Below, in pieces: positions 11,164 to 62,272 of a stretch of 64,000 nucleotides of DNA. A program made the translations under genes and the position numbers. Each line of letters starts with the position of its first letter. Positions within the stretch are counted from its first letter, which is position 1. This DNA comes from a phage. The stretch lies in NCBI GenBank assembly GCA_025812035.1, contig GCA_025812035.1_4719.1. The stretch is one strand, 5' to 3'. The notes beneath the pieces were generated by a model. It searched no databases. It was given only the letters and a program-made list of their open reading frames with translations, and was not told where the DNA came from.

Positions 11164-11186
11164 ACAAAAAAGAAATACGCCACAAC

Positions 11187-11220
11187 TTCCTTCCCCGGCC
11201 TTGATGGCTAGGGAAGGAGG
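11187..11220. terminator. GC hairpin (family copy 2, variant loop)
   Basis: CCTTCCCC ... GGGAAGG at a convergent junction. Confidence 0.45.
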
Positions 11221-11236
11221 ATTTATAGTTTATTTA

Positions 11237-11626
11237 TTAACGTGTTGCGTTCTGGATAATTTCTTTTCCGATCTTAACCAAAGCAGGTATCTGTACAGCG
11301 GTTGCACCTCGATGACGAAACGCGGTCGTTAACGCGGTATCAATACTTACAGCACGTCCGTGAAGACGATCGAAATAGACTTGAGTAATTGCAGCAGCAT
11401 AATCCTTTCGCTGTTTCTTGGTCTGGTTCAACAGCGCTGTACTACTACCAACAATGAAATAAGCGATTAAGAAGAACGCTGCTGACCGCGAACCAGGTAG
11501 AAAACCTTGTCGCTTAGGAAGCATCTCACAATCACGAACAGTATTATCGTTCGCGAGCTTTTCCATGTCGACATGGCATAATTTTGCATAGGTGTGAAGA
11601 TAGTGGGTAAAAGTTGAATTTAACAT
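11237..11626 (-). CDS. hypothetical protein (129 aa)
   Basis: ORF with SD-like context. Confidence 0.5.
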   Translation of the reverse strand: MLNSTFTHYLHTYAKLCHVDMEKLANDNTVRDCEMLPKRQGFLPGSRSAAFFLIAYFIVGSSTALLNQTKKQRKDYAAAITQVYFDRLHGRAVSIDTALTTAFRHRGATAVQIPALVKIGKEIIQNATR

Positions 11627-11731
11627 TTTCTTTCCTCGGTTACAATGAGTTCAATGTATAGCTTAAACGCCGCAGAACGACGTATAACGGTTTGTTTTAA
11701 TCTCTAAGGTGTTTCCTTGTCTAAGATTGAA

Positions 11732-12094
11732 TTAAAGCGTTCTGAAGAGTTCTGTAGCGTTCTCGTCACGTAAACAGGCTTCGTTCAACAATTCAGCTAA
11801 CAGCTTCGACCGAGCTTCAACGAATGTCCTGAGGCGATGCTTCCATTCTAAACAGACGGTGTATGAACGATCTAGCTTTTTGTGCTCGACGATAGATGAC
11901 GTGCAGTAGGTTTCGCGTTTATTCACATCGTCCCAAACATCACGAATGATCGTCAAGCCTTTCTCAGTACATGTAAACGTTATAACGTAGTGATTGTTCG
12001 CTGCTTCAACATGAACATCAATAAATTCGTTTCGTAGCGATGAGGTATTGGTTAAACGATCAATAGCGAGCGATAAACCGACACGTTGTTGCAT
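11732..12094 (-). CDS. small protein, paralog family S (member 1)
   Basis: Shares FTCTEKGLTIIRD-type motif with the next two genes. Confidence 0.5.
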   Translation of the reverse strand: MQQRVGLSLAIDRLTNTSSLRNEFIDVHVEAANNHYVITFTCTEKGLTIIRDVWDDVNKRETYCTSSIVEHKKLDRSYTVCLEWKHRLRTFVEARSKLLAELLNEACLRDENATELFRTL

Positions 12095-12095
12095 A

Positions 12096-12524
12096 TCAGA
12101 CCCCCTCTTTCAGAATCTCATTAAGGCTATTAGCAACCGCATCTAACTTCGTGTTGATTACTGTTGGTGTCAATCCGTATATTTTCCAAACTATCTCCGG
12201 TTGACGTATTCCATTTGTCAGACAATGCATTTCGATCGACAACACCATATCGTCGGTGAACGTCGTGCTTTCGCAACAACGAAGATAGGCAGCCTCAAGC
12301 AACGTCTTTCCTAACGTGGTACACACAAAAGTCAATCGAACGCAACGCAAAGACAACGTGTTCGCATTCATTGATGCTGAGACCGGCTGAATATGTTCAC
12401 GCAGTTTTTCGTCTTCACGTAATAGTGATAGGGTGCGATGTAAGCTGGTATGCTGAGCAACCAGCGAATGATAAAGACCAACGCGCGCTGCAGTTACTGC
12501 TGATTCGGGCCATTTAATTTGCAT
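12096..12524 (-). CDS. small protein, paralog family S (member 2)
   Basis: CTTLGKTLLEAA matches CSQTGKTLLENA in 12526-12942. Confidence 0.55.
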   Translation of the reverse strand: MQIKWPESAVTAARVGLYHSLVAQHTSLHRTLSLLREDEKLREHIQPVSASMNANTLSLRCVRLTFVCTTLGKTLLEAAYLRCCESTTFTDDMVLSIEMHCLTNGIRQPEIVWKIYGLTPTVINTKLDAVANSLNEILKEGV

Positions 12525-12525
12525 G

Positions 12526-12942
12526 TTATTTTCCTCGATTTTCTAGTTGAGACACAATACCATCGGCAACGTAATGTAACTGGACATTCAGGTCCAGCGG
12601 CGATAATGCGGAAATTGACCAGCAGGCATTTGAGGTCCAATACAACCCACCTTCACCCAAAGAGACTTCCCACGTTAACTTCGTTATGACGTCTCTGGCT
12701 CGCTGCTCACTATATCGAAATGCATTTTCCAACAATGTTTTTCCCGTTTGTGAACATAAAAAGCACAGTTTCACATCTGTGTCCGTCTTTTCAAAATCAA
12801 ACAATCGAAAATGGTCGGTCAAAGAGGTGGTGGAGGCTAGGCATTGCAATGCGTCTTCCAACGCAAGATGGTCTAGCGTTTCTAAGTTCTTGCATGGCTG
12901 TTTTGGTGCAAGTGCGATTGATTTGCAGAATTTAACGTTCAT
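12526..12942 (-). CDS. small protein, paralog family S (member 3)
   Basis: See previous entry. Tightly packed with 1-nt spacing. Confidence 0.55.
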   Translation of the reverse strand: MNVKFCKSIALAPKQPCKNLETLDHLALEDALQCLASTTSLTDHFRLFDFEKTDTDVKLCFLCSQTGKTLLENAFRYSEQRARDVITKLTWEVSLGEGGLYWTSNACWSISALSPLDLNVQLHYVADGIVSQLENRGK

Positions 12943-35986: not shown

Positions 35987-38893
35987 ATGAACGATATAAA
36001 TAAAGGGCGCGTCGCCCTCGAACGTCAAATGAGCAATAATGACGTTGCGAAGGCACTCATGAACAAATTTGTCGCTCCTGCCCCGCAGTCACGTCTTTAT
36101 AATACACGTGAGGCGGAAGGAGGGAACGGTCGTTTCGGGTTAGTTGTTCCCGACCAGATGACGATGAACACGGTTACGCGTGCGACAGCGACAAACATCG
36201 AGGATAATAAAAACATTCTCGAGTTGTTCCCTGAACTTAAACGCGTGATGCAGATCTATGTTGCCGCGTTGACGAACCCTAACGATCTTAAGACGGTCGA
36301 GATGTTTATCGATAGCGAAGATTTCCCCGGCAGAGTCGCAGAAATCGTTCAGCCGATGATCGATACCATCGACACGCATTTTAAGAATATCTATAAAATA
36401 AAGACGCTTATCCCTCGTATCATCGAAGACGTCTTCTTTATCAAGGGTAGTTATAACTTCGTTGTTCTGCCCGAAAGTACGCTCGATCGTGCTATTAACG
36501 GTAACGGCCAACTGAAACTTGAAGAATACGGATTCAGAGATAACCATTTTGCAAGTTGGGGGCTTTTAGGTAACGATAGTCGCAAGCGTCAAGAAAACCA
36601 ACTGCCCGCGACGGTTTCGATGGAAGATTATTTCTCAGGCGTTAACGAAACCTTATCGTACGATCCGGTTGTTCGTATAGACAGCATTAAGTTTACCAAT
36701 ACCCTGCTTCGTGATAAGGATGGTAAATTCATTGAAGCGAAGATCGATATTCCGGATATGGTTACGGTTGTCGATAACCCGGATATCCTCCGCATGCCCA
36801 TTTTGCATCAGCGTCGAGCAGCGACAGCGGTGCAACGTGCGTTACGTGCAAACACATTAGGAGGTAGTGGTCTGGTAACGCTGTCTGGTGATCCGACTCA
36901 AACCGCAAACCGGCGTGAGCTGACGCAAGAACAGGTTAACGAGATCTGGAATAAACTCAACATCCAGCGTCATACCAAGGTATCTCCCGTTTACGCGTTG
37001 GCAACCCCAGATACGCTTGACCGTCAAAGCGTTGGTCACCCCGGCGTGATGCATGTACCGCCTGAGGCATTAGAACCAGTACATGCGCCAGGTGATCCGG
37101 AGAACCATATCGGGTATTTAGTTCAGTTGGATGAGTTTGGTTATCCGGTGCGTTTGGTTGAAGATGCGGCGTATTACAAGCAGTTGGAAGGTCGGTTGTC
37201 GAAGATCACCGCGGATATCGCAGGTACTTCAAGCAATGGCATGGCGAGCGAGATGATTGGTGCGGCCAAGAACATGGTCCAAGGTACGTCATGTAATCAG
37301 GTAGACATGTCGGCCTTCGTATCATCGTACGAATCACTGATGCAACGCTACATCGTTGAACGTATTGTCAACGGTTATCTAGGTAGTGCAGTGGAGATCG
37401 GTGCGACATCATCGTTTTACCTATCGATGCTTGCTCGTAGTCTCGCCCACAAGCAGACTCGTGTTTTGTTTATTCCTCGAGAGATGGTTACATACATCGC
37501 TTATGAATACAACAAATACGGTATCGGCCGTTCGTTGCTTGAAAGCACGAAGATGATCTCGTCACAACGCGCCATGCTCATGGTTCAGGAACTGATGGCG
37601 AAAATCAAGAGTTCGTTGAACTACACAACGCTAAGTGTAATGCTTGAAGACACCGACAGAAACCCGGTCGATACCGTCGAACAAGCGTTACATAGCTTCG
37701 CTCGTGTTTACCAGTCTGGTTTCCCACTGGGTGAAACTAACCCAATGGATATCATCAATGCGTACGAACGAAGCTCGATTCGATTGAAGGTCGAGGGGAA
37801 TAACCCACGTTTCCCGAAATTGAATACCGATGTTAGCGTCGAGCAGCGTAACTATCAGTCCCCTGATAATGAATTGATGGATCGTTACCGTCGTGACCAT
37901 TTCATGGGTCTGGGTGTTTCTCCAGAGATCGTTGATACTTCTTACCAATCTGAATTCGCAGCTTCTGTGATTACAGCTAACGCGATGCAAGAGAAACAGT
38001 TCACGGTTTGTCGTGAGGTTATCGTGAATGGGTTAACCGATCACATCAAGAAGTACACGGCTTACAGTCCTGTACTGCTGACGTCGCTGCGAAACACGGT
38101 TCGTGCGAACATGTCTAAGCTCTCCCAAGCACAATTGAAGCAGCTTTTTGGTAGCGATTTCGAAAACGGTGTCATTCGTAACGTTAACGCTTACCAGGAG
38201 ATCGATGACCAGTCAGCAACGATGGATCTGGATTACTCTAAACCAGAAGTTCAGGAAGTTATTGCCGATGCTTACGTATCCATGTTCTTAAACAGTCTGC
38301 AGGTACGTTTACCGGATAGCAATGCTCGCCGCCTTGAAGATCAGGTGCGGGAATATAATCAGTACAAGGAAGCGATTACCGCACAACTTGATGATTATTT
38401 AACGCCTGATTACGTTATGGGTCTGGGTGGAGTCGATGAAACAACATTGCAGATGATTCGTGCGTGCATTATCGGTACTGCAATGCGTACTTGGGCAAAA
38501 GAGAACAACTTCAATCAGGAGTTAGCGGATCTCTTCAGTCTCGATGATAAGAAGAATGCCGTGCAAGATTGGAAACGTGCATCCATGGAACATATCGAAA
38601 TCATGGGTAAATGCATGGGTGATTTTGCACTGTATATTCAGAATCTGACGAAGAAGATTGAAGAGAAGATGGGAGATCAAGCGCAGGACGGTAGCGTTTC
38701 ATCTGATGGCTCTTGGTCGTCTGATTCAAGTAGCGATACAGGTTCTTCTGATGACTTCGGTGGTGATGATTTCGGGGATACCGATTTCGATACCGAAACG
38801 GTGGAGGAAACCTCAACAGAGGAGACAACTACGTCTGAGGATACGACTACCGACACAACGTCGGAAGACGAGACTTCAGGTGATATTGTCTAA
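35987..38893 (+). CDS. large protein (968 aa) with acidic Ser/Thr/Asp-rich C-terminal tail
   Basis: SD AAGGAG and a long ORF. The last ~70 aa are low-complexity, S/D/T/E-rich. Confidence 0.65.
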   Translation: MNDINKGRVALERQMSNNDVAKALMNKFVAPAPQSRLYNTREAEGGNGRFGLVVPDQMTMNTVTRATATNIEDNKNILELFPELKRVMQIYVAALTNPNDLKTVEMFIDSEDFPGRVAEIVQPMIDTIDTHFKNIYKIKTLIPRIIEDVFFIKGSYNFVVLPESTLDRAINGNGQLKLEEYGFRDNHFASWGLLGNDSRKRQENQLPATVSMEDYFSGVNETLSYDPVVRIDSIKFTNTLLRDKDGKFIEAKIDIPDMVTVVDNPDILRMPILHQRRAATAVQRALRANTLGGSGLVTLSGDPTQTANRRELTQEQVNEIWNKLNIQRHTKVSPVYALATPDTLDRQSVGHPGVMHVPPEALEPVHAPGDPENHIGYLVQLDEFGYPVRLVEDAAYYKQLEGRLSKITADIAGTSSNGMASEMIGAAKNMVQGTSCNQVDMSAFVSSYESLMQRYIVERIVNGYLGSAVEIGATSSFYLSMLARSLAHKQTRVLFIPREMVTYIAYEYNKYGIGRSLLESTKMISSQRAMLMVQELMAKIKSSLNYTTLSVMLEDTDRNPVDTVEQALHSFARVYQSGFPLGETNPMDIINAYERSSIRLKVEGNNPRFPKLNTDVSVEQRNYQSPDNELMDRYRRDHFMGLGVSPEIVDTSYQSEFAASVITANAMQEKQFTVCREVIVNGLTDHIKKYTAYSPVLLTSLRNTVRANMSKLSQAQLKQLFGSDFENGVIRNVNAYQEIDDQSATMDLDYSKPEVQEVIADAYVSMFLNSLQVRLPDSNARRLEDQVREYNQYKEAITAQLDDYLTPDYVMGLGGVDETTLQMIRACIIGTAMRTWAKENNFNQELADLFSLDDKKNAVQDWKRASMEHIEIMGKCMGDFALYIQNLTKKIEEKMGDQAQDGSVSSDGSWSSDSSSDTGSSDDFGGDDFGDTDFDTETVEETSTEETTTSEDTTTDTTSEDETSGDIV

Positions 38894-39313: not shown

Positions 39314-41857
39314 TTACTGCTCTTCACGTTCCAACAGATACTCGGAAGCGGTAATACCATTTACCGTACGTACTGCTTTCAGACGAGTATCATCGTTCAG
39401 AATCACGGTAACAGACTGTAGACCTTTTACTTTGGTCTCGAAGGTCTTGAACACCTGATCCAGCATACGAGCAATGCTTGGGTTGGTTGCAGCTGACGCG
39501 TGAGTGTAACCGCTCTGGTTCAGATTCAGAATCTTGGCATTGGTCGGTACGCGAACAACAACATGCGGACGCATAGCGAACACGCTGTGATTGAACCAGT
39601 AAGCATCGTTGCTGTCTTCGTCAGTGACGATGTCTGGATTAACACGCATATCCTCAACAGCCGCATCAGCCAAACGACGTTCGATTTCGTCAGCGTCCAG
39701 AGAGCCATCTTTCTCCAGTTCTGCACGATACTCACTCATGGCAACCAAATGACGTTCACGATTCACCGTAGATTTTTCGTGAGCGACTTTCAGGTAGTCA
39801 TGCATGTTGTACAGTTCTGCCATAGACAGACGAATGTTCCACTGACCATCACCGTCACGGTTGCAGTAGAGACACTTCAGCATGTTGACCCAGGTATGGT
39901 AGCAATTGGAGAACTCATCTTCAATAAACTTCTGATCCATTTTAAGATCGTGAATCAGCCAGCCGGACAGTTCTCCGATATCATCAACGAAGCTAGAGAT
40001 GGTGGTTTCAGAGAAGTCCTTCGGTACGATACGTTTGATCAACTTGTTGACGTCTTTGGTCATGCTATCGTTCAGGAAATGCCAAATACGCAGAGGAATG
40101 ACATCTCGATACTGTTGCATGATCTGACGATAAGCCGCAATATCGTCGCTACGACCTTTATCAATAGACAACGCATCCAGGAATTCATGGATAGCATCCA
40201 GCTCTTTGTCGGTATAAGTTCCCAGATAGGAATTGACCGTGGCAAGGAATGCTAATGCGTCGTTTTGGTTGACGTCGGTGTTGGTCTGCTGGATGATCGC
40301 CACAGCAGCTTTGGTTTCAGCATCCTCAACGCTCGATGCTGCGATCGCATCGGTAACGGTAAACAGTTTCATTTCGCGTTGTTCGCCGACAACGATTGGT
40401 TCACGTTGAACCGGTTTGTTGAGGCTAACGCGGACAACCTCCGATTGCGCGATGCGGTCCAGTTTTATCATTTCCTGCTCTGCCATACGACGAGCGGTTG
40501 GATCTGATTCAAGTTCGATGTATTCCACTTCTTCCTCCGTGAGGGATGTAATGTCAACAATGGTTTCATGAAGAATTCCGTTTTCGTCGATACGTGCTCG
40601 ACGAGCGAAGTGCCTGAAGTCATACAACGTTGGCCAGCGACAATTAGGTGCGTAGTCTTTGGCCTTCAGACGCATCTGCATAAATTCTTCATGTTGAACA
40701 ACACGACCGTAACGCTTAGCATCTTCGGTCGCATCAATGGGATTAACGGTCTTTGTTGCCGTAGCGGAACGAACCGTACGGATGGGTTCCGGTTTAGTCT
40801 GCACAGGTTCAGGTTGAACAGGTTTCTGCTGTCCAGACTTAACATGCCATTCGGGTTCTTCGTACCGTTCAGCGAACTGTTCGGCTGCTGCAAAGATATC
40901 GTTGATACCACCGACGTCTCCTTCGGGATTCGTCGAGTAGATACGTGGTTGTGGTGCCTCGTAACGCGGCGCTGTGGTAGCAGGTGCATCATCAACGATA
41001 GGATCATCACCAACATCATACAAACGGTTGAACGCACAATCCTTCGAATCAATGTACGATGGAGCTTGTGGTTGAACAACCGTCGGTCGAGGTTGTGCGC
41101 CGTATCCTGGCATCGTTGGAGCCATACCACGCATAACCGCTGGACTCGGTTGGTATTGCGGTTGCGGATAGGTTCCATATGCAGGTTGCTGCGGTTGACC
41201 GTACCCGGTGCTGGCCATCGCATTTGCTTGTGGTCCGCGATACGTCATTCCCATCTGCATCACCTGTTGCTTCAAACCACGCGATTTTTGCGCGATTTGC
41301 GCCAGGCTCCCGTTTTTATTGAGCTGTGTATACTTATTCGCGGCTTCCGGGTTAACGCGTGATAACTCAATCGCACGATAATACTCCGGGTATTGATTAG
41401 GTTCAAAGAGCCACGTTACAAGATGATACAGCGCAACCGTGCTCACGGCAGCAGTGACGATCTGGTCGGTGGACGCATTCTGCGGCATCGGGTTGATGTA
41501 AGAGAATACGTTCCAGCAGCAATCTTCAACAAGCGATTCCATCATCATATCGCTATTGGTATAACGCGCGACGAAATCGGTTTGTATCTTATCTTGCTGT
41601 GCGAAGTCTTTCAAGACGTTAAAGATAGCCTGACGGATTTTGACGATCGTTGCTTCTTGGGTGATGAAGTTATAGTTCTGCTGATACGCCGGTTGCTGGT
41701 ATTGTGGTGGTTGATAGGTGTTATTCGGGTATGGGTTGTACGGCGGTTGCTGGTATTGTTGCTGACGTACCTGCTCCGCGGCATAATTAATCGTGCTCGC
41801 ATAAGGGTTTTCGCTATAGCCCATTTGCTGGTACATGTTGTTACTACCATTATACAT
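39314..41857 (-). CDS. large protein (847 aa) with Q/Y/P/N-rich prion-like low-complexity domains
   Basis: N-terminal region is QQ/PY-rich; a second Q/P/Y-rich stretch lies near residue 190. The remainder is a normal globular sequence. Confidence 0.65.
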   Translation of the reverse strand: MYNGSNNMYQQMGYSENPYASTINYAAEQVRQQQYQQPPYNPYPNNTYQPPQYQQPAYQQNYNFITQEATIVKIRQAIFNVLKDFAQQDKIQTDFVARYTNSDMMMESLVEDCCWNVFSYINPMPQNASTDQIVTAAVSTVALYHLVTWLFEPNQYPEYYRAIELSRVNPEAANKYTQLNKNGSLAQIAQKSRGLKQQVMQMGMTYRGPQANAMASTGYGQPQQPAYGTYPQPQYQPSPAVMRGMAPTMPGYGAQPRPTVVQPQAPSYIDSKDCAFNRLYDVGDDPIVDDAPATTAPRYEAPQPRIYSTNPEGDVGGINDIFAAAEQFAERYEEPEWHVKSGQQKPVQPEPVQTKPEPIRTVRSATATKTVNPIDATEDAKRYGRVVQHEEFMQMRLKAKDYAPNCRWPTLYDFRHFARRARIDENGILHETIVDITSLTEEEVEYIELESDPTARRMAEQEMIKLDRIAQSEVVRVSLNKPVQREPIVVGEQREMKLFTVTDAIAASSVEDAETKAAVAIIQQTNTDVNQNDALAFLATVNSYLGTYTDKELDAIHEFLDALSIDKGRSDDIAAYRQIMQQYRDVIPLRIWHFLNDSMTKDVNKLIKRIVPKDFSETTISSFVDDIGELSGWLIHDLKMDQKFIEDEFSNCYHTWVNMLKCLYCNRDGDGQWNIRLSMAELYNMHDYLKVAHEKSTVNRERHLVAMSEYRAELEKDGSLDADEIERRLADAAVEDMRVNPDIVTDEDSNDAYWFNHSVFAMRPHVVVRVPTNAKILNLNQSGYTHASAATNPSIARMLDQVFKTFETKVKGLQSVTVILNDDTRLKAVRTVNGITASEYLLEREEQ

Positions 41858-41891: not shown

Positions 41892-43691
41892 TCAATCGAT
41901 TATGTCACGATCGTTAATTTCTACAATTTCTTCATCGAATCGACCGACGTCTTTCTTCAAGCCTGCATTTGTTGCTGCAACGTCATTTGCAATTTGTGGG
42001 GTAACGATTAACCGACCACGCTCGTCGATAGGTGCGTACATACTGAACTTCTGACGTCCGGTTGGTTCGGAGTGTGGAAGATTCAGATAGCTCGCACAGA
42101 ACGGGATGGAACCACTAACCAAACGACTCTCGTCAGCCAACGCAGCACCGCCTGCGTTTTGGCTCTGGAGAACAACATGCGTGCTCACTTTGAACAGCAT
42201 GCAATCACCCGGTGACTGAATCGATGTTGCCACTTTCTCACGCTTATCACGATTGCTCTGGATATTGAGAATCGCTTCTGTTGCAACTTGATTTCGCAAC
42301 GCCTTCTGTACATCGCGATTGGTCATCTCTTTACGGTTGTTCTGTCGTTTACCACGTTCTGTGGTTTTAAGATGGAACCCCAGTTTAAAGATGCTCTTAC
42401 GCACATCCTCCATGACATATTCCAACACCATCAATTCCTTACCGAACATCGTCGTGGTATCAACACGACTCATTTCGATAGTAACATTGTCAATCAGATA
42501 CGCCATAAATTCGTAGAAGTCATCGCAAGGAATATTTTCCTGTTTGAACTTCTTCTGCTGAATTTCGTCGACGTAAAGATCAAGGCTATCGATGTGGTGG
42601 TTTACATCACGCAACAAACGCGCATCCGCGTTGTTGTTATTAAAGATAATCAAACCGAGTAATGTACGCCAATGGTCTGGCGCATTAGCGAACTCTTCAA
42701 CCGGATAGTCTTCCGGAAAACGATCGTAATAGCGGTCGATGAGATACAAGAACGCACCGACAAGGCCAAGAACAATACGTTCCGTGCCTCCACGTCTTAC
42801 AGCAATTTGAATATCAGGATGTTTATAACGTACAGCGTTAGCGCTACGGCTTTTACCGCTCTTACTAATACTAAAGCCTTTAGGAATAACCCCCATGGTG
42901 CGATAGATTACCCATTGGTCGCGCGGAAAATCGCGTTCAGCAAGATTCCGTCCGGTTACCGCTTCGACACCCGCGAAACGTCGGAAACATTCACCTACCC
43001 CGTACTTCGCAAAGAGATAGTGACCCAATGTGGTTACACTGGTGTGGTTGATGTTGTCACCGTTCACTTTACTTTGTTTGGTAAGATGATAGATTTGCGA
43101 CCAGGGTAACGATAGATAGTGACGATAATCGACACCGGTTGGAGTATCATTACTCAGGAACTGATACGGCGTACGTTTAACTGTGATTTTGTCACGCGGA
43201 AGCATGATGAACGCCATGTCTTTCGTGTAACTGATTACAGGGTCAGCGAGTACCGCACTGAGAATAAAGTTTGCACCACGTAGACGCATTTTACCACCCT
43301 GCCCTACTGCGGGTAATAGGAGAGGGTGTCGGATAATGCAGTAGTCCTTTCCTGGTTCACGACGGTCACCTGATTCCATCGCGCCATACCAGCGGAATTC
43401 TAACATCACCATAAACACATCGGACGGCGCAAGGTCAAAGGTCAGCTTACCGCTATCCTTCCCTTTGGTTTTCTTTCCTCCGCTTAAGTAGTGAAACTGT
43501 TCGCGGGCCACACAACGACGTAGGCCATGATACACCAGATCCTTAGGTAAACTATCTTTGCTGTTCCGCCAAAGACGATCAACATAGGACTCAACATCTT
43601 GCATCTTATCGACGACGATGTTGCGCGCTATCTTCTCGTTCATCTTCGGTGCAAGCCCAGCGACAGCTTTGCAGAATCTAGGATCCATCAC
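41892..43691 (-). CDS. hypothetical protein (599 aa)
   Basis: Long ORF. No motif recognised. Confidence 0.6.
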   Translation of the reverse strand: MMDPRFCKAVAGLAPKMNEKIARNIVVDKMQDVESYVDRLWRNSKDSLPKDLVYHGLRRCVAREQFHYLSGGKKTKGKDSGKLTFDLAPSDVFMVMLEFRWYGAMESGDRREPGKDYCIIRHPLLLPAVGQGGKMRLRGANFILSAVLADPVISYTKDMAFIMLPRDKITVKRTPYQFLSNDTPTGVDYRHYLSLPWSQIYHLTKQSKVNGDNINHTSVTTLGHYLFAKYGVGECFRRFAGVEAVTGRNLAERDFPRDQWVIYRTMGVIPKGFSISKSGKSRSANAVRYKHPDIQIAVRRGGTERIVLGLVGAFLYLIDRYYDRFPEDYPVEEFANAPDHWRTLLGLIIFNNNNADARLLRDVNHHIDSLDLYVDEIQQKKFKQENIPCDDFYEFMAYLIDNVTIEMSRVDTTTMFGKELMVLEYVMEDVRKSIFKLGFHLKTTERGKRQNNRKEMTNRDVQKALRNQVATEAILNIQSNRDKREKVATSIQSPGDCMLFKVSTHVVLQSQNAGGAALADESRLVSGSIPFCASYLNLPHSEPTGRQKFSMYAPIDERGRLIVTPQIANDVAATNAGLKKDVGRFDEEIVEINDRDIID

Positions 43692-43727: not shown

Positions 43728-45203
43728 TTACTTTTTCGATGAAGCTTTCTCAAGAATCTTGAAAAAGGTCATACCTATACCAACAACGGCCGCGGTTATA
43801 CTCGCAGCGGCTTTCCAGACATCGACGTTACGTTGACGTCGCGCTTCTTCCGCTTCGCGTTGTCTTTTTGCTTCATCATCACGACGGCGTAGCTCAGTTG
43901 TGAATTCATCGTGCTTACGTTTCGCGTCCTCGTCTCGGCGACGCATTTCAGCGATAAGCTCATCATGCTTACGTTTTGCCTCTTCATCACGACGTTTAAG
44001 TTCAGCTTGATGTTCTTCTCGTATTTGTTTACGAAGATCATCTTGACGTTTCATTTCGGCTTGGTGGTGTTCCATCCTACGTTCAGTATCGTCTTTAAGC
44101 TGTTTAACAATTTCCGCATGTTGCTTATTTTGTCGTTCCGCATCGGTTTTATACAATTCGTGTAATTGCTTTATTTCCGATGCGTGAGCGTCAGCCTGTC
44201 GTTTCATTTCGTTGGTATGATCGACCTGCAGTTGCTTTATTTCAGCCATCAGCCCTTTAAGGGTTTCTTCTGTTGACTTACGTTCATAGCTACGTTGGTC
44301 GAAATCATTTTTGTAGGCTTCTTTTTGGATGGGGTCGCGCCAATGCAATGCCGATTCACGTGTCGGAAAAACATTGTACTTCCACATCTCTTTTTCCAAA
44401 TCTTCGACCGGTACGAAGACGGAGTCATTATTCCCGAAGGTAACCAACATACCTGGCGCGCCTGCTCCATTCGTTGGTTTTATTTCGAACGCTTTTCCCA
44501 GAACGTTAACCCATAAGCTATACGGATTATGAAAGTCTGGTGGCGTCCAATGGATAGTGAGTTGCGTTCCGAGAATCCGGAAACCCTCTGTTTTTCCCGT
44601 CAAGCTTCGCGCACACGTTGCGATGTAGGGGTGATCAATCCCTTTCGTAACGTGGTCTGCGCTTTTGTATTCTCCTTTAACTTTTACGACTGCCACGTTG
44701 ATTTGCGCGACATAAATAGGTTGATTAAAGTTCAACGTGTTGAGGTCAATTTGGCATACTTCATCCAGCGTATCGTACCAGTCTTGCTGGTCTAATAGAC
44801 GCGGTATTTTCTCCGTGTTAACGATGCGACGGATATGCGGTTTCCTTATCGCGTAACCTGTGCCGTTTTTAACACGAAGTATATCCCGACGTCTACCCGC
44901 GTAGACGAAGTTTCTGAATGCACCATTCGCATTAGATACGTCATGGCTGTCAACTATTACAGGACTACGAAATTTTGAACGCCTTACGATCCTGAATGTA
45001 TTGCCGTCCTCAACCCTACCAGGAATGTACTGGAACATATTGTCGGAGGTGATAACCAACACGGTATGGTTGGATTCATTAATACACGCCCATCCTAATT
45101 CCAGGTCATATAACGGTTCAGCATAACCGTCAATGCGATATGCGTGCGTACCATCCCACGGTTCGAACGCGGTATCACATATTGGCATGGAGGGCATCGT
45201 CAA
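43728..45203 (-). CDS. tail-anchored membrane protein with charged coiled-coil repeats
   Basis: Globular N-terminal domain, about 150 aa of K/R/E/D-rich coiled coil including three 18-aa tandem repeats, then C-terminal hydrophobic anchor AAASITAAVVGIGMTFF. Confidence 0.65.
   Translation of the reverse strand: MTMPSMPICDTAFEPWDGTHAYRIDGYAEPLYDLELGWACINESNHTVLVITSDNMFQYIPGRVEDGNTFRIVRRSKFRSPVIVDSHDVSNANGAFRNFVYAGRRRDILRVKNGTGYAIRKPHIRRIVNTEKIPRLLDQQDWYDTLDEVCQIDLNTLNFNQPIYVAQINVAVVKVKGEYKSADHVTKGIDHPYIATCARSLTGKTEGFRILGTQLTIHWTPPDFHNPYSLWVNVLGKAFEIKPTNGAGAPGMLVTFGNNDSVFVPVEDLEKEMWKYNVFPTRESALHWRDPIQKEAYKNDFDQRSYERKSTEETLKGLMAEIKQLQVDHTNEMKRQADAHASEIKQLHELYKTDAERQNKQHAEIVKQLKDDTERRMEHHQAEMKRQDDLRKQIREEHQAELKRRDEEAKRKHDELIAEMRRRDEDAKRKHDEFTTELRRRDDEAKRQREAEEARRQRNVDVWKAAASITAAVVGIGMTFFKILEKASSKK
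43860..44020. repeat. three imperfect ~54-bp tandem repeats inside the 43728-45203 CDS
   Basis: Encode ELKRRDEEAKRKHDELIA / EMRRRDEDAKRKHDEFTT / ELRRRDDEAKRQREAEEA. Coordinates approximate. Confidence 0.5.
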
Positions 45204-45437: not shown

Positions 45438-45534
45438 GACTTATGTATCACGGTGCCGGATGAATGTCCGGTGCAATGAAACCATCTGCAACGTTGTCGT
45501 CAAGAATATCATCCAACGAAGCAGCTACGGTAGT

Positions 45535-47757
45535 TCAGTTAGTCTGAACCGGCAGCTTGATGTTTTCAGTGTAGACCTTACGCAGGTTCACGACGTTAAT
45601 CAGACCCAGCAGCGGGCAGTTGTTAACGAAGCGGCAGCGCGGCTGAACCATGGTTTCTTTAGAAACCTGACCGTTACGGGTAACCTGAGCAACAGATACC
45701 AGTTCCGGTACATACAGGAACATACCGAAGGTCAGCGGATCCGGAGAACCCTGGATACCACGAGACAGGGTCACGAAGATCTTATCACGCAGCAGGACGT
45801 TCGGGTTATCTACAACCACGAAGTTGAAGCTTACACCAACGGTACGGAAATCACCATCGGTCTGCAGGAACTGCGGGATGTAGTTGTCGGTTGCTACTAC
45901 GCAACGCGGTTTCTCATCAGCGTTGGAAGACAGCAGCTGCAGAGCTGGCTGATAACCAGACTCAGAGTACATGCGGTATGCCATCTCACGAATCACGTTC
46001 ATGATCGCAGCGGACACTTCAGCACGACGTTCTGCAGTGGTGGTACCCTGAACGGATTTCGCCAGGTCCAGGTTGATTTCTTCGAACCACGGACGGATCA
46101 GGTAACGACCGAAACCTTCGATCTGGATGTCACCGAACTGACGGAAGCGAGAGGTCGCAACTGCTTTCAGTGCGTCTTTGTAGCTGAACAGTTTCTCAAC
46201 CATCAGGTTGTCGAAACGTGCGTTAGCCGCTTGGATCAGAACGTCCAGGTCAGCAGCGTTTTCTTCCCAATCAAGCGGACGAGGAATGGAGAACGGAGCC
46301 AGCAGACCGATTGCGTAACGCTCTTGCTTCATGTTGAAGTCAAGGTGCTTACCACGTTCACGACGGTTGCTGTTGTTACGACGGATACGCAGTTCGTAAC
46401 CAACCAGTTTGAAGCTCAGGTCGTCAGCCAGGTCTTTGAATTCTTGGCTCTTACGCGGCTGTTCGATGTTGTCCTGATCAACCAGGCGATACAGTTCAGC
46501 GTTAGCGCCGTTAACACGCAGACCCGCTTTCTCTACGTTGGAAGAACCGTAAACTTCGATAGCCAGCTGAGCAGCGGATTTCGCATCGATGATGTCCTGC
46601 AGCGCTTCGGCTTTCGCACCTTTAACGTCAACGGTGTTCTCATCAACGAAGATGGAGTGAGTGTCGAACGCCAGGGTCATTTTGCGGAAGTCGCCTTCCA
46701 GAGATTTCTGGAAACCGTTGGTGATCAGACCGGATACGTCGAACGGAACGTAAGAGGTTTTGCTGTGCTTAGCGGATTTGATTTCCACCAGGATTTTGGT
46801 CAGCGTGATCTGAGCATCCAGCGCGTCGGTGTTGTCGCTGTAACCGTTAGCCAGAATGCTATCGTCTTCAGCGATACCGATCATGTCGATCAGTTTATCA
46901 ACAGCCAGGTAAGACGTTTTATAAGTTACGCCTTTAATTTCGATGTCACGCGGAGCAACGATAGCTTTGTCAACGAAGTACTGCGCGTTAGCATCGTCAG
47001 CACGATAGATCGGGTGCAGGTCGGTCACGTCGTTGGACAGAACGTCGTTGTACATGAACGCGTCCAGCAGCGGACGACGTACCCAATCAGCCGGAGTACC
47101 GTCAGCGTTACGACGCAGATGGTTGAATACCAGCGGACGACGGAAAGATACGTCATAACCGATCTGGTTCGGAGCCAGAACGATGGTGTTGTACAGTTCG
47201 TTACCCATGCGGCTCAGACGAGAAGCCTTCACGTTGAACACAACGGAGTACGGCATCATGTCGCGCAGTTCTTTCTGGTCGTAGGACAGCTGAACCAGTT
47301 CTTCAGATTCGCAACCGCAGGAATCAGCAGCCATCATGACGAAGTTAGAGCTGTCAACTTCACGACCTGACGGAGTGGTGCTGATGTTCATGGAACGTGC
47401 TTGTTTAGCGTATTCCACCGGGTTACCATGAGCCAGCATGATCAGTGCTGCTGCACGAGCCTGCTGTGCGTTCATGGTGAACAGCTGTTCTTCAATACGC
47501 TGCTTCTCTTCCGGAGTGGTGGTTTCGAAGCCCAGCATAGACAGAACCGGTTCTTCTGCTTTACGGATGTCGCTGCTGAAGCTCTTAACATCCATATCGT
47601 TAACCAGTTTGTCCATGGATTTGAAATCAACCTTAGAAGCAGATTCCATAGACAGGAAGGTGTTTTCCAGACCTTTGTCTGCTGGTTTGCTACCATTAGC
47701 GGTCAGGAACTGGCGAGTGGCCGCGACCTGCTGGCTAAGAAGGGTTTTATCATTCAT
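45535..47757 (-). CDS. major virion structural protein (~740 aa; major capsid candidate, tail sheath not excluded)
   Basis: Strongly optimised codons (CTG, CGT, GGT, ACC, GAA). Monocistronic between a promoter-like region and a hairpin. Size is typical of jumbo-phage capsid proteins. Confidence 0.5.
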   Translation of the reverse strand: MNDKTLLSQQVAATRQFLTANGSKPADKGLENTFLSMESASKVDFKSMDKLVNDMDVKSFSSDIRKAEEPVLSMLGFETTTPEEKQRIEEQLFTMNAQQARAAALIMLAHGNPVEYAKQARSMNISTTPSGREVDSSNFVMMAADSCGCESEELVQLSYDQKELRDMMPYSVVFNVKASRLSRMGNELYNTIVLAPNQIGYDVSFRRPLVFNHLRRNADGTPADWVRRPLLDAFMYNDVLSNDVTDLHPIYRADDANAQYFVDKAIVAPRDIEIKGVTYKTSYLAVDKLIDMIGIAEDDSILANGYSDNTDALDAQITLTKILVEIKSAKHSKTSYVPFDVSGLITNGFQKSLEGDFRKMTLAFDTHSIFVDENTVDVKGAKAEALQDIIDAKSAAQLAIEVYGSSNVEKAGLRVNGANAELYRLVDQDNIEQPRKSQEFKDLADDLSFKLVGYELRIRRNNSNRRERGKHLDFNMKQERYAIGLLAPFSIPRPLDWEENAADLDVLIQAANARFDNLMVEKLFSYKDALKAVATSRFRQFGDIQIEGFGRYLIRPWFEEINLDLAKSVQGTTTAERRAEVSAAIMNVIREMAYRMYSESGYQPALQLLSSNADEKPRCVVATDNYIPQFLQTDGDFRTVGVSFNFVVVDNPNVLLRDKIFVTLSRGIQGSPDPLTFGMFLYVPELVSVAQVTRNGQVSKETMVQPRCRFVNNCPLLGLINVVNLRKVYTENIKLPVQTN

Positions 47758-58906: not shown

Positions 58907-61900
58907 TTACTTGTAGGCACCGCAATGTGCTTTGATGAGGAAAAGCACCGCTTGCATCGGCTTATTGAACTGCTGCCATAACGTCAATGCAGGATGGAAC
59001 AACCAATCTTCCAGGCCAAGAACAATACCATAGTTAACGACATTATTAACATCGTTCTCAACGTTGAGTTCGCTATCCAGGAATTTATCGATTGAACGCA
59101 GGGTCTGCATGGCGTTGTCAGCGATGAGCCAAGCCTCATGCGCTTCACGAGCCGCACGTAGCAACGCATCCAGCTCGCTGACGCTGGCTACCGGTAATTC
59201 CTCGCTGGTGAGGTCGTCAGAAACCGTGAAGCTGCGGTTGATACCGGTATAGATCCACTGCATCAGTTTCGCTGCTTCCTCGTTCGGGTTGTTACGCGTT
59301 GTCGCATAGGTTGCGCTCACCTTCACGATATGCGTTTCACCGAGATACGCTTTGGAACCAACACCTTTACGATCGCTGTCTTTCCATGGCTGTACGGTAG
59401 CAACCATAAGCTTATCCCATTTCTGGATAGGAATACGCTTCAGACCAACAACCGAGCCAGTGGACGTGTCGGACTGGTTGCTCTTCCGCACTTCGCTGAG
59501 CTCACGATCGATAGCGACGATTAATTCGCGTGCCATGTTACCGAGCATTTTGATTTCACCCAACGCAGCGATGAGTTTCTTCACATCGGTAACAGGCTCA
59601 CCACCGATGGTAAGATGACGGATGAATCGTTTCAGAATAATCCGTTCCGCAGCTGGGTTACCGTGACGCGCTTTAGCTAGTGCTTGCTGTGTTTCGGCGA
59701 ACAGCTTATCCCATGGAGCCGTAGCAGCAGTGTAGTAACGGTGATTGGTTTCGATCCAATTCCCGATACGGTTAACCGCGTTCTTAACGGTATCCATGAA
59801 TCCTTCCATCGCGATTTCGGTAGCTTCAACGTTACCCCGGAAGTTATCAGGACCGATCTCGCGTGCCGCTACCAGAATACCTTCCACCGCACTTACCGCA
59901 TGGCGACCGATAGCCAGATTTCGCTGTGCTTCTTCAGCACGCTCAACGAATTCCACCACAGCCGGATCGTCAACGATTTCCGCTTCGGCAACAGCACGTG
60001 TACCTGCATCGCCTTCCAACGTCTCGATGGTGACAACAGGATCGTTTTCACCAGCAACGTCCTGATACTCTTCCTGTTTGAGATCGCCGTTATCAGCCGC
60101 TGCGACAGCGGTGAGTATACGGACAGTAACATCGCCGAGTTCTTTCGCTGCGAATCCGTAGACGGTGCATGCTGTTGTCGCAAAGTTCATCAGCGTACGT
60201 GTACGTTTAACGATGTAACCAACACCATAATCGCTACCGCTCTTATCGATGTCGCGGATTAACTGTTCAGCCGTCTCCTGAAGTTGAGTAGCTGCTTTCA
60301 GAAGGTTTTCGTCAAACAGTTTCGTTGATGCACTGATCAGCATTTCAACGCTGACATTGGACGGCACAGCATCGTCCTGCTGTTTCATGGCGCTAAGTTC
60401 GTCACGGAACTTACGAATACCGTCTAAAGCGGCATCGGCGTTATGTCCGAATGCGGCTACGCCCGACATTGTTGTTGCTGACAACATATCCGAATCGGCG
60501 TTTGGACTTTCGCCTTCTTTAAGATCCTTCAATTGGTCGAAGAATTTACGGGACGCGTCGGCAATACGTTTACTGTCTTTGACTGCGTTTACGATTTTAT
60601 CGACCGATTTAGCATCGTTCGCAAGCAGCGTATCGAGCTTGTTCCATTCGACGTCGACTTTCTTCGCATCCGCAGTATTACTCGGCGGAGGAAGCAGTTT
60701 CATCACTGGCGTTGTGCGTTGTTCTTTGGTGAGCTTACCAGCCTTCTCATCGATTTTCTTTTTACTAACACCGAAGAGCTTTCTTAGGCGTGCTACGAGG
60801 GCTTTTAAGAACTTCACAACCGCTTCGTAAACCGACTTCAGGATCTGCTTAAAGCGACCTGGCTGTTTTTCCCCGTCTTCCAGATTGAGATCGCTGTTCA
60901 ATGCGATATCAAGCTGTTTGTACGATTCCATGATGTATTCGTCTTTGATTTCAGGACGAATCTCGAAGCTTTCCATCGGACCTTCAGCCGGACGGAATTC
61001 CATTTTCAGTTCGCCTTGCAGGGTAGGGTCGACAATAGCGATAGCTTCGCCCTGGCCATCCGCATTAAAACGTTCAGCGTAACGAGTACGACGAACGATA
61101 ACGCTCTTATCCCCTTCAAAACGACGTACCACCATGGTGCCTGGAATGTACGGTTGTTCTGTTTCGATAACGGTAACGCCTGTTTCACCTTCACCGAGAA
61201 TAACGGAGGCCTGCTGCTCAACAACAGGAACATCTAAAACACCACGTGCTTCCAGCTCTTGACGAATTTCGAACGACTCTTGTTTCAGATCTTCATCTTC
61301 TTCGTTTTCGTCGTCTTCATCGTCGTCACCTTCGGTGTTTTCATTACCCTCGGTGGTTGTGGTGTCTGTGTTGGTAGGTTCTTCGGACGCAGGTTCGGTG
61401 GTGCTGTCTTCGGCAGGCGTTTCGTCAGCGTTATCGACGTCAACATCACCTTGCAGCTCCGTTTCTTGAGCAACTGCTTCGGCTTTCTGCTCGCCGGTAT
61501 TGCCGTCATTAGCGTCAACAACCGGTTGTTCGTCAGCGACGGTATCTTCAACCTTTTCTACTTTCTCCACGACGCGTTTAATCACGGTGACTTTGATGGG
61601 TTCTTCCGTCGTTTTGGTTTCTGGTGTTACATCGGCTGCCGTGGCTGTTGTTTCAGCTGCAGGTTCTTCTTTTTCCGGTTCGACGACATTACCTTTAACC
61701 CCTTGGGTGGTTTCTGCCGGTTGCGCAGCCTGTTCGATTTGTGCCGGGTTGGTTGGATCGATGGCGTTAGCCGCATCCTGAATCTTGTTCTTCAGGTTGT
61801 CGCGGTCAGCGCTGATGGTCGGGTCATTGGTCACTTTCGGTGCCGGTGTTTCGGTCGGTGCGTTTGCCGGATACGGGTTCTTCGGTTCTTCGCCTGGTGC

Positions 61901-62272
61901 GGTCGGTACCGCGATCAGAACGAACGGCTGAACATCGTTACCGTCTTCCATGGTTACACCGCCGTTACTTGGTGTGAAACGAATGCGCAAACTCCCATCA
62001 ATAGGACGGGTTACAATAACAGCACGTACGACGTCTTCACCGTTCTCATCCGTGCTACGAATCACACGAACGGCATCATCAACGGTGGTCCCTTCCTCGA
62101 GCGTATCTGATTCGATCGTCGCTTCGATGCTGTCTGGCCGTGCCGCGGTAGGTAACGCGATCACTTGCTCTTCTTTATCGGTAGAAAGCGTTGCTTTGAC
62201 TTCGATAGGGGTATCGCCGCTTTCCAGGTTAAGATGCGACTTACGCATCAGATCAGCTAACGATTTTTTCAT
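58907..62272 (-). CDS. very large protein (1121 aa) with internal acidic/PT-rich disordered region
   Basis: Long ORF. Residues ~130-330 are E/D/T/P-rich, including a DDDEDDENEEDED stretch. Confidence 0.65.
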   Translation of the reverse strand: MKKSLADLMRKSHLNLESGDTPIEVKATLSTDKEEQVIALPTAARPDSIEATIESDTLEEGTTVDDAVRVIRSTDENGEDVVRAVIVTRPIDGSLRIRFTPSNGGVTMEDGNDVQPFVLIAVPTAPGEEPKNPYPANAPTETPAPKVTNDPTISADRDNLKNKIQDAANAIDPTNPAQIEQAAQPAETTQGVKGNVVEPEKEEPAAETTATAADVTPETKTTEEPIKVTVIKRVVEKVEKVEDTVADEQPVVDANDGNTGEQKAEAVAQETELQGDVDVDNADETPAEDSTTEPASEEPTNTDTTTTEGNENTEGDDDEDDENEEDEDLKQESFEIRQELEARGVLDVPVVEQQASVILGEGETGVTVIETEQPYIPGTMVVRRFEGDKSVIVRRTRYAERFNADGQGEAIAIVDPTLQGELKMEFRPAEGPMESFEIRPEIKDEYIMESYKQLDIALNSDLNLEDGEKQPGRFKQILKSVYEAVVKFLKALVARLRKLFGVSKKKIDEKAGKLTKEQRTTPVMKLLPPPSNTADAKKVDVEWNKLDTLLANDAKSVDKIVNAVKDSKRIADASRKFFDQLKDLKEGESPNADSDMLSATTMSGVAAFGHNADAALDGIRKFRDELSAMKQQDDAVPSNVSVEMLISASTKLFDENLLKAATQLQETAEQLIRDIDKSGSDYGVGYIVKRTRTLMNFATTACTVYGFAAKELGDVTVRILTAVAAADNGDLKQEEYQDVAGENDPVVTIETLEGDAGTRAVAEAEIVDDPAVVEFVERAEEAQRNLAIGRHAVSAVEGILVAAREIGPDNFRGNVEATEIAMEGFMDTVKNAVNRIGNWIETNHRYYTAATAPWDKLFAETQQALAKARHGNPAAERIILKRFIRHLTIGGEPVTDVKKLIAALGEIKMLGNMARELIVAIDRELSEVRKSNQSDTSTGSVVGLKRIPIQKWDKLMVATVQPWKDSDRKGVGSKAYLGETHIVKVSATYATTRNNPNEEAAKLMQWIYTGINRSFTVSDDLTSEELPVASVSELDALLRAAREAHEAWLIADNAMQTLRSIDKFLDSELNVENDVNNVVNYGIVLGLEDWLFHPALTLWQQFNKPMQAVLFLIKAHCGAYK

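Follow-up and report, generated by a model that had tools for sequence, protein, structure and literature searches.

We analysed an open reading frame (ORF) on the minus strand of a 64,000-nt stretch of phage DNA (NCBI GenBank assembly GCA_025812035.1, contig GCA_025812035.1_4719.1), referred to below as the window. The ORF (39314..41857) starts with ATG and encodes a protein of 847 amino acids (aa). The sequence of the window is closely related to that of Goslar, a nucleus-forming jumbo phage of Escherichia coli, whose gene numbering we use throughout. The ORF is the counterpart of Goslar gp38 (Goslar_00038 / HOV27_gp038), annotated as "hypothetical protein", to which the region is 91.5% identical in nucleotides and 94.5% in amino acids. 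On the basis of sequence profiles, domain layout and gene order we assign gp38 with high confidence as a divergent orthologue of JADA, the Goslar-lineage version of this chimallivirus protein.

The gene directly upstream of gp38 on the same strand is the counterpart of gp39 (41892..43691, minus strand, 599 aa), the β-like subunit of the non-virion RNA polymerase (nvRNAP). It matches phrog_2943 'polymerase' with E=1e-119 and corresponds to PhiKZ gp123 and PhiPA3 gp139 according to the PhiPA3 annotation note; Table S4 for Goslar labels gp39 as nvRNAP. A gap of 34 nt separates the gp39 stop from the gp38 start, and a ribosome-binding site (AAGGA) lies 9 nt upstream of the gp38 ATG. gp38 is probably co-transcribed with the nvRNAP subunit. 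A scan for σ70 promoters and terminators found sites no more numerous than expected; the promoter scan is uninformative because chimallivirus RNAPs use other promoters. On the other side of gp38 are a small ORF, the gp37 counterpart, and the portal gene (gp36 counterpart, 35987-38893, plus strand), and beyond gp39 lies a PhiKZ-type major capsid gene (gp41 counterpart, 45535-47757, minus strand). These capsid, portal and RNAP neighbours match a genome of the Chimalliviridae.

The protein can be divided into five parts, all encoded on the minus strand. It begins with an N-terminal low-complexity region that is rich in Q, Y, N and P, prion-like and with evenly spaced Tyr (aa 1-65, 41663..41857). 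This is followed by a helical N-domain (~aa 66-204, 41246..41662), a second low-complexity region rich in P, Q, A, G and Y (aa 205-266, 41060..41245), a further P/A/D/E/T-rich stretch (aa 267-374, 40736..41059) and a large C-terminal domain (aa 375-847, 39317..40735). The N-domain and the C-domain are thus separated by a low-complexity or disordered linker of ~170 aa (205-374). AlphaFold2 (AF2) modelling of the full-length protein from 5 sequences gave a mean predicted local distance difference test score (pLDDT) of 36, and modelling of the C-domain from 8 sequences gave 49. In the full-length model the N-domain helices have pLDDT 50-66, and aa 267-374, with the lowest values of 21-28, are probably disordered. 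An earlier note on this DNA described everything outside the two low-complexity regions as normal globular sequence; this holds for the N-domain and the C-domain, which appear ordered, but probably not for aa 267-374. The motif best conserved in the family lies within the C-domain (aa 576-638, 39944..40132; …IPLRIWHFLNDSMTKDVNKLI…TISSFVDDIGEL…).

Assignment of gp38 to the JADA family

JADA is Pa36 gp316, equivalent to PhiKZ gp124 (PDB 9RP3; Muralidharan et al., Mol Cell 2026, PMC12931631). According to that study it is an essential, abundant and early-expressed protein specific to the Chimalliviridae, and its position downstream of the nvRNAP β-like subunit is reported to be invariant. It consists of an N-domain (1-170), a linker (171-269) for which there is no cryo-EM density, and a C-domain (270-721) that forms a rigid homodimer with a novel fold. 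During infection JADA collects in foci at the vesicle of early infection (EPI vesicle), and it triggers the Avs5 defence system, for which the C-domain alone is sufficient (PMC12931631). Its molecular function "remains to be elucidated"; the authors propose a role in early transcription, and nucleic-acid binding is an AF3-based suggestion only (PMC12931631). In PhiKZ, phage transcription at 30 min is strongly perturbed when PhiKZ124 is knocked down with antisense oligomers (PMC12571901), although only one of two oligomers gave a mild plaque phenotype.

Searches that start from gp38 alone remain within its immediate relatives. The protein matches no Pfam or PHROG family, and tblastn against 50,697 phage records found Goslar only. 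An exhaustive HMMER search with aa 265-847 against 1.84 billion representatives returned the protein's own cluster and a single 38%-identical protein, P0005, whose gene lies on a metagenomic contig with the same gene order. JADA is therefore out of reach of single-sequence methods. Word-indexed homology searches contained only close relatives and P0005-P0008 among the matches listed. Three candidate matches were rejected. The Pfam family Cas9_C_2 matched gp38 with E=0.0015 and 18.7 bits, compared with a cut-off of 27, and the PHROG 'Rz-like spanin' matched P0005 with E=0.0067; both were taken as chance matches in helical regions. An influenza M2 entry in the PDB (E=1.2) was taken as a chance or compositional match.

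The position of the gene led to a different set of relatives. gp39, which has tblastn matches in 274 phage records, was used as the syntenic anchor of the JADA family. The slot after the gp39 homologue holds a protein of ~600-890 aa in each chimallivirus genome inspected (PhiPA3, RSF1, PCH45, SL2, KpHz_2, Simmy50, Centimanus and Moabite among them), with the exception of PhiPA3, where a protein of 261 aa is annotated. An ORF of 600-890 aa also occupies the slot in 72 of 80 chimallivirus loci from IMG/VR. phrog_15010 links several of the slot proteins, and the PhiKZ-type slot protein belongs to the family of PDB 9RP3 chain A, 'Gp316/JADA' (1668 bits).

The PhiPA3 exception has a possible explanation in the annotation. 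In this genome (L003, NC_028999) the 261-aa gp140 matches only the first ~250 of the 712 positions of phrog_15010. The JADA C-domain is found in an unannotated plus-strand ORF (L003:11379-12737) in a frame other than that of gp140, within the region 10649-12755, and is overlapped on the opposite strand by gp141 (L003:11301-12755). gp140 appears to be a truncated JADA call: either the low-complexity linker contains a frameshift or a sequencing error, or the gene was mis-called. The annotated gp141 is probably spurious.

Homology between gp38 and JADA emerges in profile comparisons. With hhalign, a profile of the Goslar family aligned to a small alignment of slot proteins with a probability of 97.2% and E=4e-11 over a motif of 60 columns (aa 576-638 to JADA 538-599), and a domain-wise alignment of the C-domain gave 92% over 360 columns. 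Searched against the PDB, the Goslar-family profile had 9rp3_A as its top match, on the same motif, at E=1.3. Iterative jackhmmer searches from the C-domain of either protein recovered the slot proteins and none of the ~733 other ORFs of the same loci; the matches labelled 'decoy' were all slot genes of loci that had not been masked. In a non-circular test the JADA profile was rebuilt after removal of all Goslar-type sequences from the database. The C-domain then aligned with 99.3% probability and E=5e-20 over 344-367 columns, nearly the whole domain, and the N-domain with 82.9% and E=9e-6 over 114 columns, which is moderate support; the reversed control gave 0.3% in each case. The N-domain of gp38 (~aa 66-204) is thus probably homologous to the N-domain of Pa36 gp316 (residues 1-170). 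A Foldseek search with the AF2 model of the C-domain against 350,542 PDB chains returned only 9rp3_B and 9rp3_A at E≤1e-3 (E=3.5e-5, ~317 columns), with a TM-score of only 0.2, and the next match had E=0.09.

gp38 resembles JADA in its slot, strand and restriction to chimalliviruses, in having a similar size (847 compared to 721 aa), and in the sequence of an N-domain, a long linker and a large C-domain with the shared motif …P..W..L….T..VN…TI..F..D…L….. It lies downstream of the nvRNAP subunit in the same direction, in a genome of the Chimalliviridae; its C-domain is homologous by profile, and an N-domain and a long disordered linker precede it. There are also clear differences. The two proteins share only ~13-14% identity, a relationship invisible to BLAST, phmmer and PHROGs, and the hosts are E. 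coli and Pseudomonas, respectively. gp38 carries the additional 65-aa Q/Y/N/P segment at its very N-terminus and has an inserted helical stretch in the C-domain (~aa 679-739). Its linker is ~170 rather than ~100 aa long and contains 13-14% aromatic residues, compared to 9% in the G/M/P/Q-rich linker of the PhiKZ type.

Several observations count against the assignment. It rests on profile-profile, iterative and synteny evidence: phmmer with gp38 against the PDB found nothing linking it to JADA, 9RP3 is reached by the Goslar-family profile only at the E-value of 1.3 given above, and there is no PHROG or Pfam family to join the two. The AF2 models are poor and the TM-score is low, so that the Foldseek match corroborates a shared fold but is no superposition. 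Dimerization, timing, localization and essentiality would all be carried over from a Pseudomonas orthologue of ~14% identity; the data on early expression, essentiality and location at the EPI vesicle come from Pa36, PhiKZ and Churi. The absence of a link in plain phmmer, PHROG and Pfam searches, and the single relative outside the cluster among 1.84 billion representatives, count in favour of an unrelated, non-homologous protein in the JADA slot. Set against this are the contrast between 99.3% and 0.3% in the non-circular alignment and its control, reciprocal recovery by jackhmmer, the top Foldseek matches and the collinear architecture, and we regard an unrelated occupant as very improbable. 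The slot position, three-part layout and profile homology of the C-domain, with corroboration from Foldseek, are the reasons for assigning gp38 to JADA; the family was described in 2026, and gp38 adds a highly divergent member to it rather than a system of a new kind.

Composition and selection of the low-complexity segments

The composition bias of gp38 was judged by entropy, by composition and by comparison with 2000 shuffles of the same protein, using windows of 50 aa. Among the 80 ORFs in the window with 100 aa or more, that of gp38 is the most biased. The N-terminal segment (aa 1-65) contains 14 Q, 12 Y, 10 N and 8 P, corresponding to 37% Q+N and 18% Y; charged and aliphatic (I/L/V) residues number just three each. 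Its top 50-aa window consists of 74% Q+N+Y+P, compared to 40±3% after shuffling (maximum 60%; 0 of 2000 shuffles reach 74%). The linker segment (aa 205-266) contains 13 P, 10 Q, 8 A, 7 G and 6 Y and three charged residues, and reaches 64% Q+P+Y+G, compared to 34±3% (maximum 48%). Both segments lie ~10 standard deviations (SD) beyond the shuffles, with aa 1-65 at 11 SD.

Judged from its composition, aa 1-65 fits the description of a PLAAC-type prion-like stretch, being rich in Q/N and Y/P and depleted in charged and hydrophobic residues. Its composition resembles that of yeast Sup35-N with a cosine of 0.89, and its 13 aromatic residues are spaced approximately every 5 residues, more evenly than in shuffled sequences (coefficient of variation 0.37, compared to 0.79±0.19; P=0.002). 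The two prion-like low-complexity regions described in the earlier note are borne out, as is its remark that such domains are uncommon in phage proteins, of which ~1.4% are PLAAC-positive (PMC5694896). The likeness to Sup35-N and to the low-complexity region of FUS is one of composition and aromatic spacing: a stretch of ~60 aa rich in Q/N/Y/P(G), with few charged or aliphatic residues and regular aromatics. aa 1-65 has more Pro and less Gly/Ser than those proteins, is limited to the genus-level Goslar clade and is attached to a phage-specific, probably dimeric domain. The Q/P/G-rich, uncharged linker of E. coli SSB is also similar to the gp38 linker and gave weak profile matches to it (E=6.6-9.8). 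These are compositional and not significant, and homology was rejected; the SSB linker also ends in an acidic, partner-binding tip, which has no equivalent in gp38.

The four close homologues all have both segments, and within each segment the length varies. In the Goslar clade the ratio of nonsynonymous to synonymous substitution rates (dN/dS) is 0.09-0.11 for aa 1-65 and 0.07-0.09 for the linker low-complexity region, compared to 0.04-0.17 for the folded domains, with dS in the segments of 0.5-1.4. Both segments are under purifying selection in this clade, and the low dN/dS indicates that they are translated and constrained. The linker low-complexity region is 87-92% identical within the clade, and towards its more distant members the linker segment is better conserved (89-90% identity) than the N-domain (73-75%).

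The nucleotide sequence of the N-terminal half of gp38 (40736-41857) forms a local identity trough of 76-88% towards an IMG/VR relative (L013), whereas the C-domain (39317-40735) and the gp39 RNAP gene (41892-43691) are 89-98% identical to it. Likewise, dS towards this relative is 0.6-1.4 in the N-terminal low-complexity region, N-domain and linker and 0.27 in the C-domain. Identity falls exactly at the start codon of gp38 and rises again inside the disordered linker. This mosaic pattern suggests either recombinational (modular) exchange of the N-terminal module, with a junction in the disordered linker, or a much older divergence.

Across the family, 75 of 83 non-redundant homologues (~90%) have a low-entropy segment of 30-220 aa ahead of the C-domain; it is absent from the remaining 8 by the entropy criterion used. 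The linker chemistry of the 83 homologues is a continuum. At its uncharged end are the Q/N/P/G/M/Y-rich linkers of Goslar, KpHz_2, the Erwinia Agricanvirus group and the PhiKZ group, of which those of the Goslar clade are the most aromatic (13-14%). At its charged end are the R/G/D/S/E-rich linkers of RSF1 (ORF121), the Serratia phages PCH45 and Moabite and the Klebsiella phage Centimanus, with many RGG, RG, RD and RS repeats; tethers of the RGG/RG/RD type often contain interspersed Tyr. These Arg-rich orthologues share the slot, the layout and a homologous C-domain with gp38 (phrog_15010, jackhmmer), but they lack an N-terminal extension and start with the helical domain. N-terminal low-complexity extensions are almost confined to proteins with uncharged linkers. 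When Arg-rich and non-Arg-rich linkers were mapped on a rough neighbour-joining tree of the RNAP subunit, at least 8 changes between the two states were required.

The earlier note had taken homologues lacking the regions as a sign against its reading. The low complexity itself is kept in the 75 homologues, but the 38%-identical P0005 has no Tyr-rich N-terminal segment, only a short N/G/Q stretch, and other lineages have R/G/D/S or G/M/P instead of Q/Y/P. The prion-like chemistry is therefore kept inside the Goslar clade and not across the family, where it is low complexity as such that is retained. This retention, together with the dN/dS values and the conservation of the linker within the clade, leads us to conclude that low complexity is a conserved, selected family trait, and that the prion-like chemistry is a lineage-specific solution.

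The same data bear on whether the segments are only a flexible linker, with a composition that drifts with mutational bias and a prion-like look that is incidental. The wholly different linker chemistry between lineages with its repeated switches, the variation in linker length between homologues and inside the segments, and the missing density for the linker in the orthologue's cryo-EM map would all suit such a neutral spacer. The substitution data do not: dN/dS of 0.07-0.11 in both segments, with dS of 0.5-1.4, indicates constraint, and the linker low-complexity region is better conserved than the N-domain towards distant clade members. In addition, the aromatic spacing in aa 1-65 is non-random, Tandem Repeats Finder detected no DNA-level tandem repeats in the gp38 gene of the kind that would indicate slippage, and a spacer would give no reason for the additional N-terminal segment, which has one free end. 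We therefore think it unlikely that the segments are neutral.

Four plus-strand ORFs lie opposite gp38, all in the codon-aligned antisense register, and the earlier note had ascribed them to the low complexity of the protein. This does not hold. The antisense ORFs end exactly at the only six TTA/CTA/TCA codons of gp38 (of 848), and this together with their register points to codon usage. The two longest lie mainly outside the biased segments: one of 251 aa is opposite aa 535-786 in the C-domain, and one of 264 aa, opposite aa 166-430, spans the linker low-complexity region but is mostly opposite other sequence. The capsid gene, without such a low-complexity region, has an antisense stop-free stretch of 611 codons with the same cause. 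The ORFs opposite gp38 and the capsid gene are a by-product of the avoidance of TTA, CTA and TCA in highly expressed genes. Opposite the capsid gene (45535-47757, minus strand) this produces a 636-aa plus-strand ORF (45460-47370), also in the codon-aligned register, that could be mistaken for a gene.

Large assemblies and the proposed role of the tethers

Goslar gp038 was detected in CsCl-purified virions by 26 peptides (28% coverage), with an estimated 17-39 copies (~25), and is unmodelled in the virion cryo-EM structure. The neighbouring nvRNAP subunit gp39 is present at 0.14 copies in the same sample. The preparation also contains chimallin (~126 copies), ChmC (~78) and PhuZ (~171), and its authors report that nucleus fragments and PhuZ filaments were captured. 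gp38 is part of some large assembly. One possibility is that a few copies travel inside the capsid and enter the cell together with the DNA, so that gp38 is at the vesicle from the start. Its copy number in purified virions, the near absence of the nvRNAP subunit and the location of the gene among structural genes, between portal gp36 and capsid gp41, are in favour of this. The captured nucleus fragments and filaments, with chimallin, ChmC and PhuZ in the same sample, count against it. JADA orthologues are synthesized anew early in infection and rank with the most abundant proteins at 10 min, and JADA made from a plasmid moves from the cytoplasm to the vesicle (PMC12931631); the orthologue of phage Churi is listed as non-structural. 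We consider packaging in the virion quite improbable.

Three other proteins of the window have low-complexity or variable regions. A 1121-aa protein (58907-62272, minus strand) without a PHROG match contains an acidic T/E/D/P/A-rich low-complexity region of ~200 aa (~aa 120-330). From its size alone it would be Goslar gp053, a ~123-kDa protein of the PF12699 'inner body' type present at ~330 per virion in the Goslar mass-spectrometry table. The portal (ORF 35987-38893, plus strand) ends in an extremely acidic S/D/T/E-rich tail of ~60 aa (38700-38893; …SSDGSWSSDSSSDTGSSDDFGGDDFGDTDFDTETVEETSTEETTTSEDTTTDTTSEDETSGDIV), which extends past the crown domain assigned to residues 778-923 of Goslar gp36. 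Inside the gp40 counterpart (43728-45203, minus strand), which also has no PHROG match, positions 43801-44250 show a sharp local divergence from Goslar and L013: one 150-nt bin is 52% identical, its neighbours are 83-87% and the flanks 93-98% identical, which makes this a hypervariable patch.

The abundance of gp38 in a large-particle preparation, ~180 times that of its nvRNAP neighbour (~25 compared to 0.14 copy-equivalents), also bears on the possibility that the Q/Y/P segments drive phase separation and that gp38 nucleates or forms a membraneless compartment, such as an early transcription/translation hub at the infection vesicle or an assembly site. The Sup35-N-like composition and even Tyr spacing of aa 1-65 are suggestive of such a scaffold, as is the occurrence in other clades of RGG/RG/RD tethers, the other classic phase-separating class. 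A dimer with four low-complexity segments would be multivalent. Purifying selection on both segments and the foci of the orthologue at EPI vesicles are further points in its favour. Against it, mScarlet-JADA was diffuse before infection at the expression level used, and purified JADA was a stable homodimer by mass photometry and cryo-EM (PMC12931631). The text and supplements of the JADA study name no Goslar homologue, and neither low complexity nor condensates nor phase separation is a topic there (PMC12931631). The Tyr-rich N-terminal segment is missing from P0005, and the 8 homologues without a low-complexity segment point in the same direction. On balance we doubt that gp38 is a condensate scaffold.

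The reading that we consider probable combines the two results: gp38 is a JADA orthologue, and its low-complexity segments are selected flexible tethers with lineage-variable chemistry. By analogy with the solved orthologue the C-domain would form a rigid homodimer, to which two N-domains may be joined by long and flexible tethers of low complexity. The tethers would be a selected feature and not filler. In the Goslar clade the evenly spaced Tyr residues could provide weak multivalent contacts, and other clades would use Arg/Gly/Asp-rich tethers instead. Through the reach and avidity of its tethers the protein might then become concentrated at the infection vesicle or the nascent nucleus as soon as a partner is available in the infected cell. 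Formation of a prion or of an autonomous condensate is probably not their purpose. The link of gp38 to an early-infection compartment is indirectly supported, by analogy with the JADA foci at the EPI vesicle (PMC12931631).

Some results fit a multivalent tether less well. Neither the length (30-220 aa) nor the chemistry of the linker is conserved, and a generic flexible spacer would fit these observations equally. The aromatic spacing of the linker segment (aa 205-268) is not significant (P=0.14), and the higher conservation of Tyr relative to other positions in the segments (18/20 compared to 79/109) is not significant either (p=0.16).

In a more far-reaching variant, which we consider unlikely, the tethers would be the part of JADA that does the work: dimers bearing several tethers rich in stickers would phase-separate into a hub on the EPI vesicle or nascent nucleus and there concentrate early transcripts, new nvRNAP or ribosomes. 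A chimallivirus protein that forms condensates with RNA in vitro is ChmC. It is Goslar gp176, a nucleus-associated RNA-binding protein (bioRxiv 10.1101/2023.09.22.559000). Like gp38, ChmC is specific to chimalliviruses, has a place at the interface of compartment and cytoplasm and in phage gene expression, and co-purified with Goslar 'virions', but it has no sequence relation to gp38 and is a smaller protein (~28.6 kDa, from the mass in Table S4) with a defined nucleic-acid-binding fold. If the hub existed, Tyr-rich prion-like and Arg-rich RGG-like chemistries would have been swapped repeatedly with function kept, JADA would be a bacteriophage counterpart of FUS-type condensate scaffolds, and the essentiality of a protein with so few conserved residues would be explained.

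The JADA family itself was known. New here are the assignment of gp38 to it and the view, across the whole family, of a low-complexity tether that is under selection but whose chemistry is interchangeable. We found no literature on Goslar gp38, under any naming, beyond the virion mass-spectrometry table; a 'hypothetical protein' that is an orphan to standard searches thereby gains a name and a testable context. Of the chimallivirus systems, E. coli with Goslar is the most convenient for genetics, and a JADA orthologue would now be available in it. One prediction from the assignment is that E. coli sensors of the Avs5 type, if they recognize Goslar, would act through aa 375-847. For the family as a whole, the retention of the tether, its flips between Tyr/Gln and Arg/Gly and the purifying selection on it direct attention to the tethers besides the solved C-domain.

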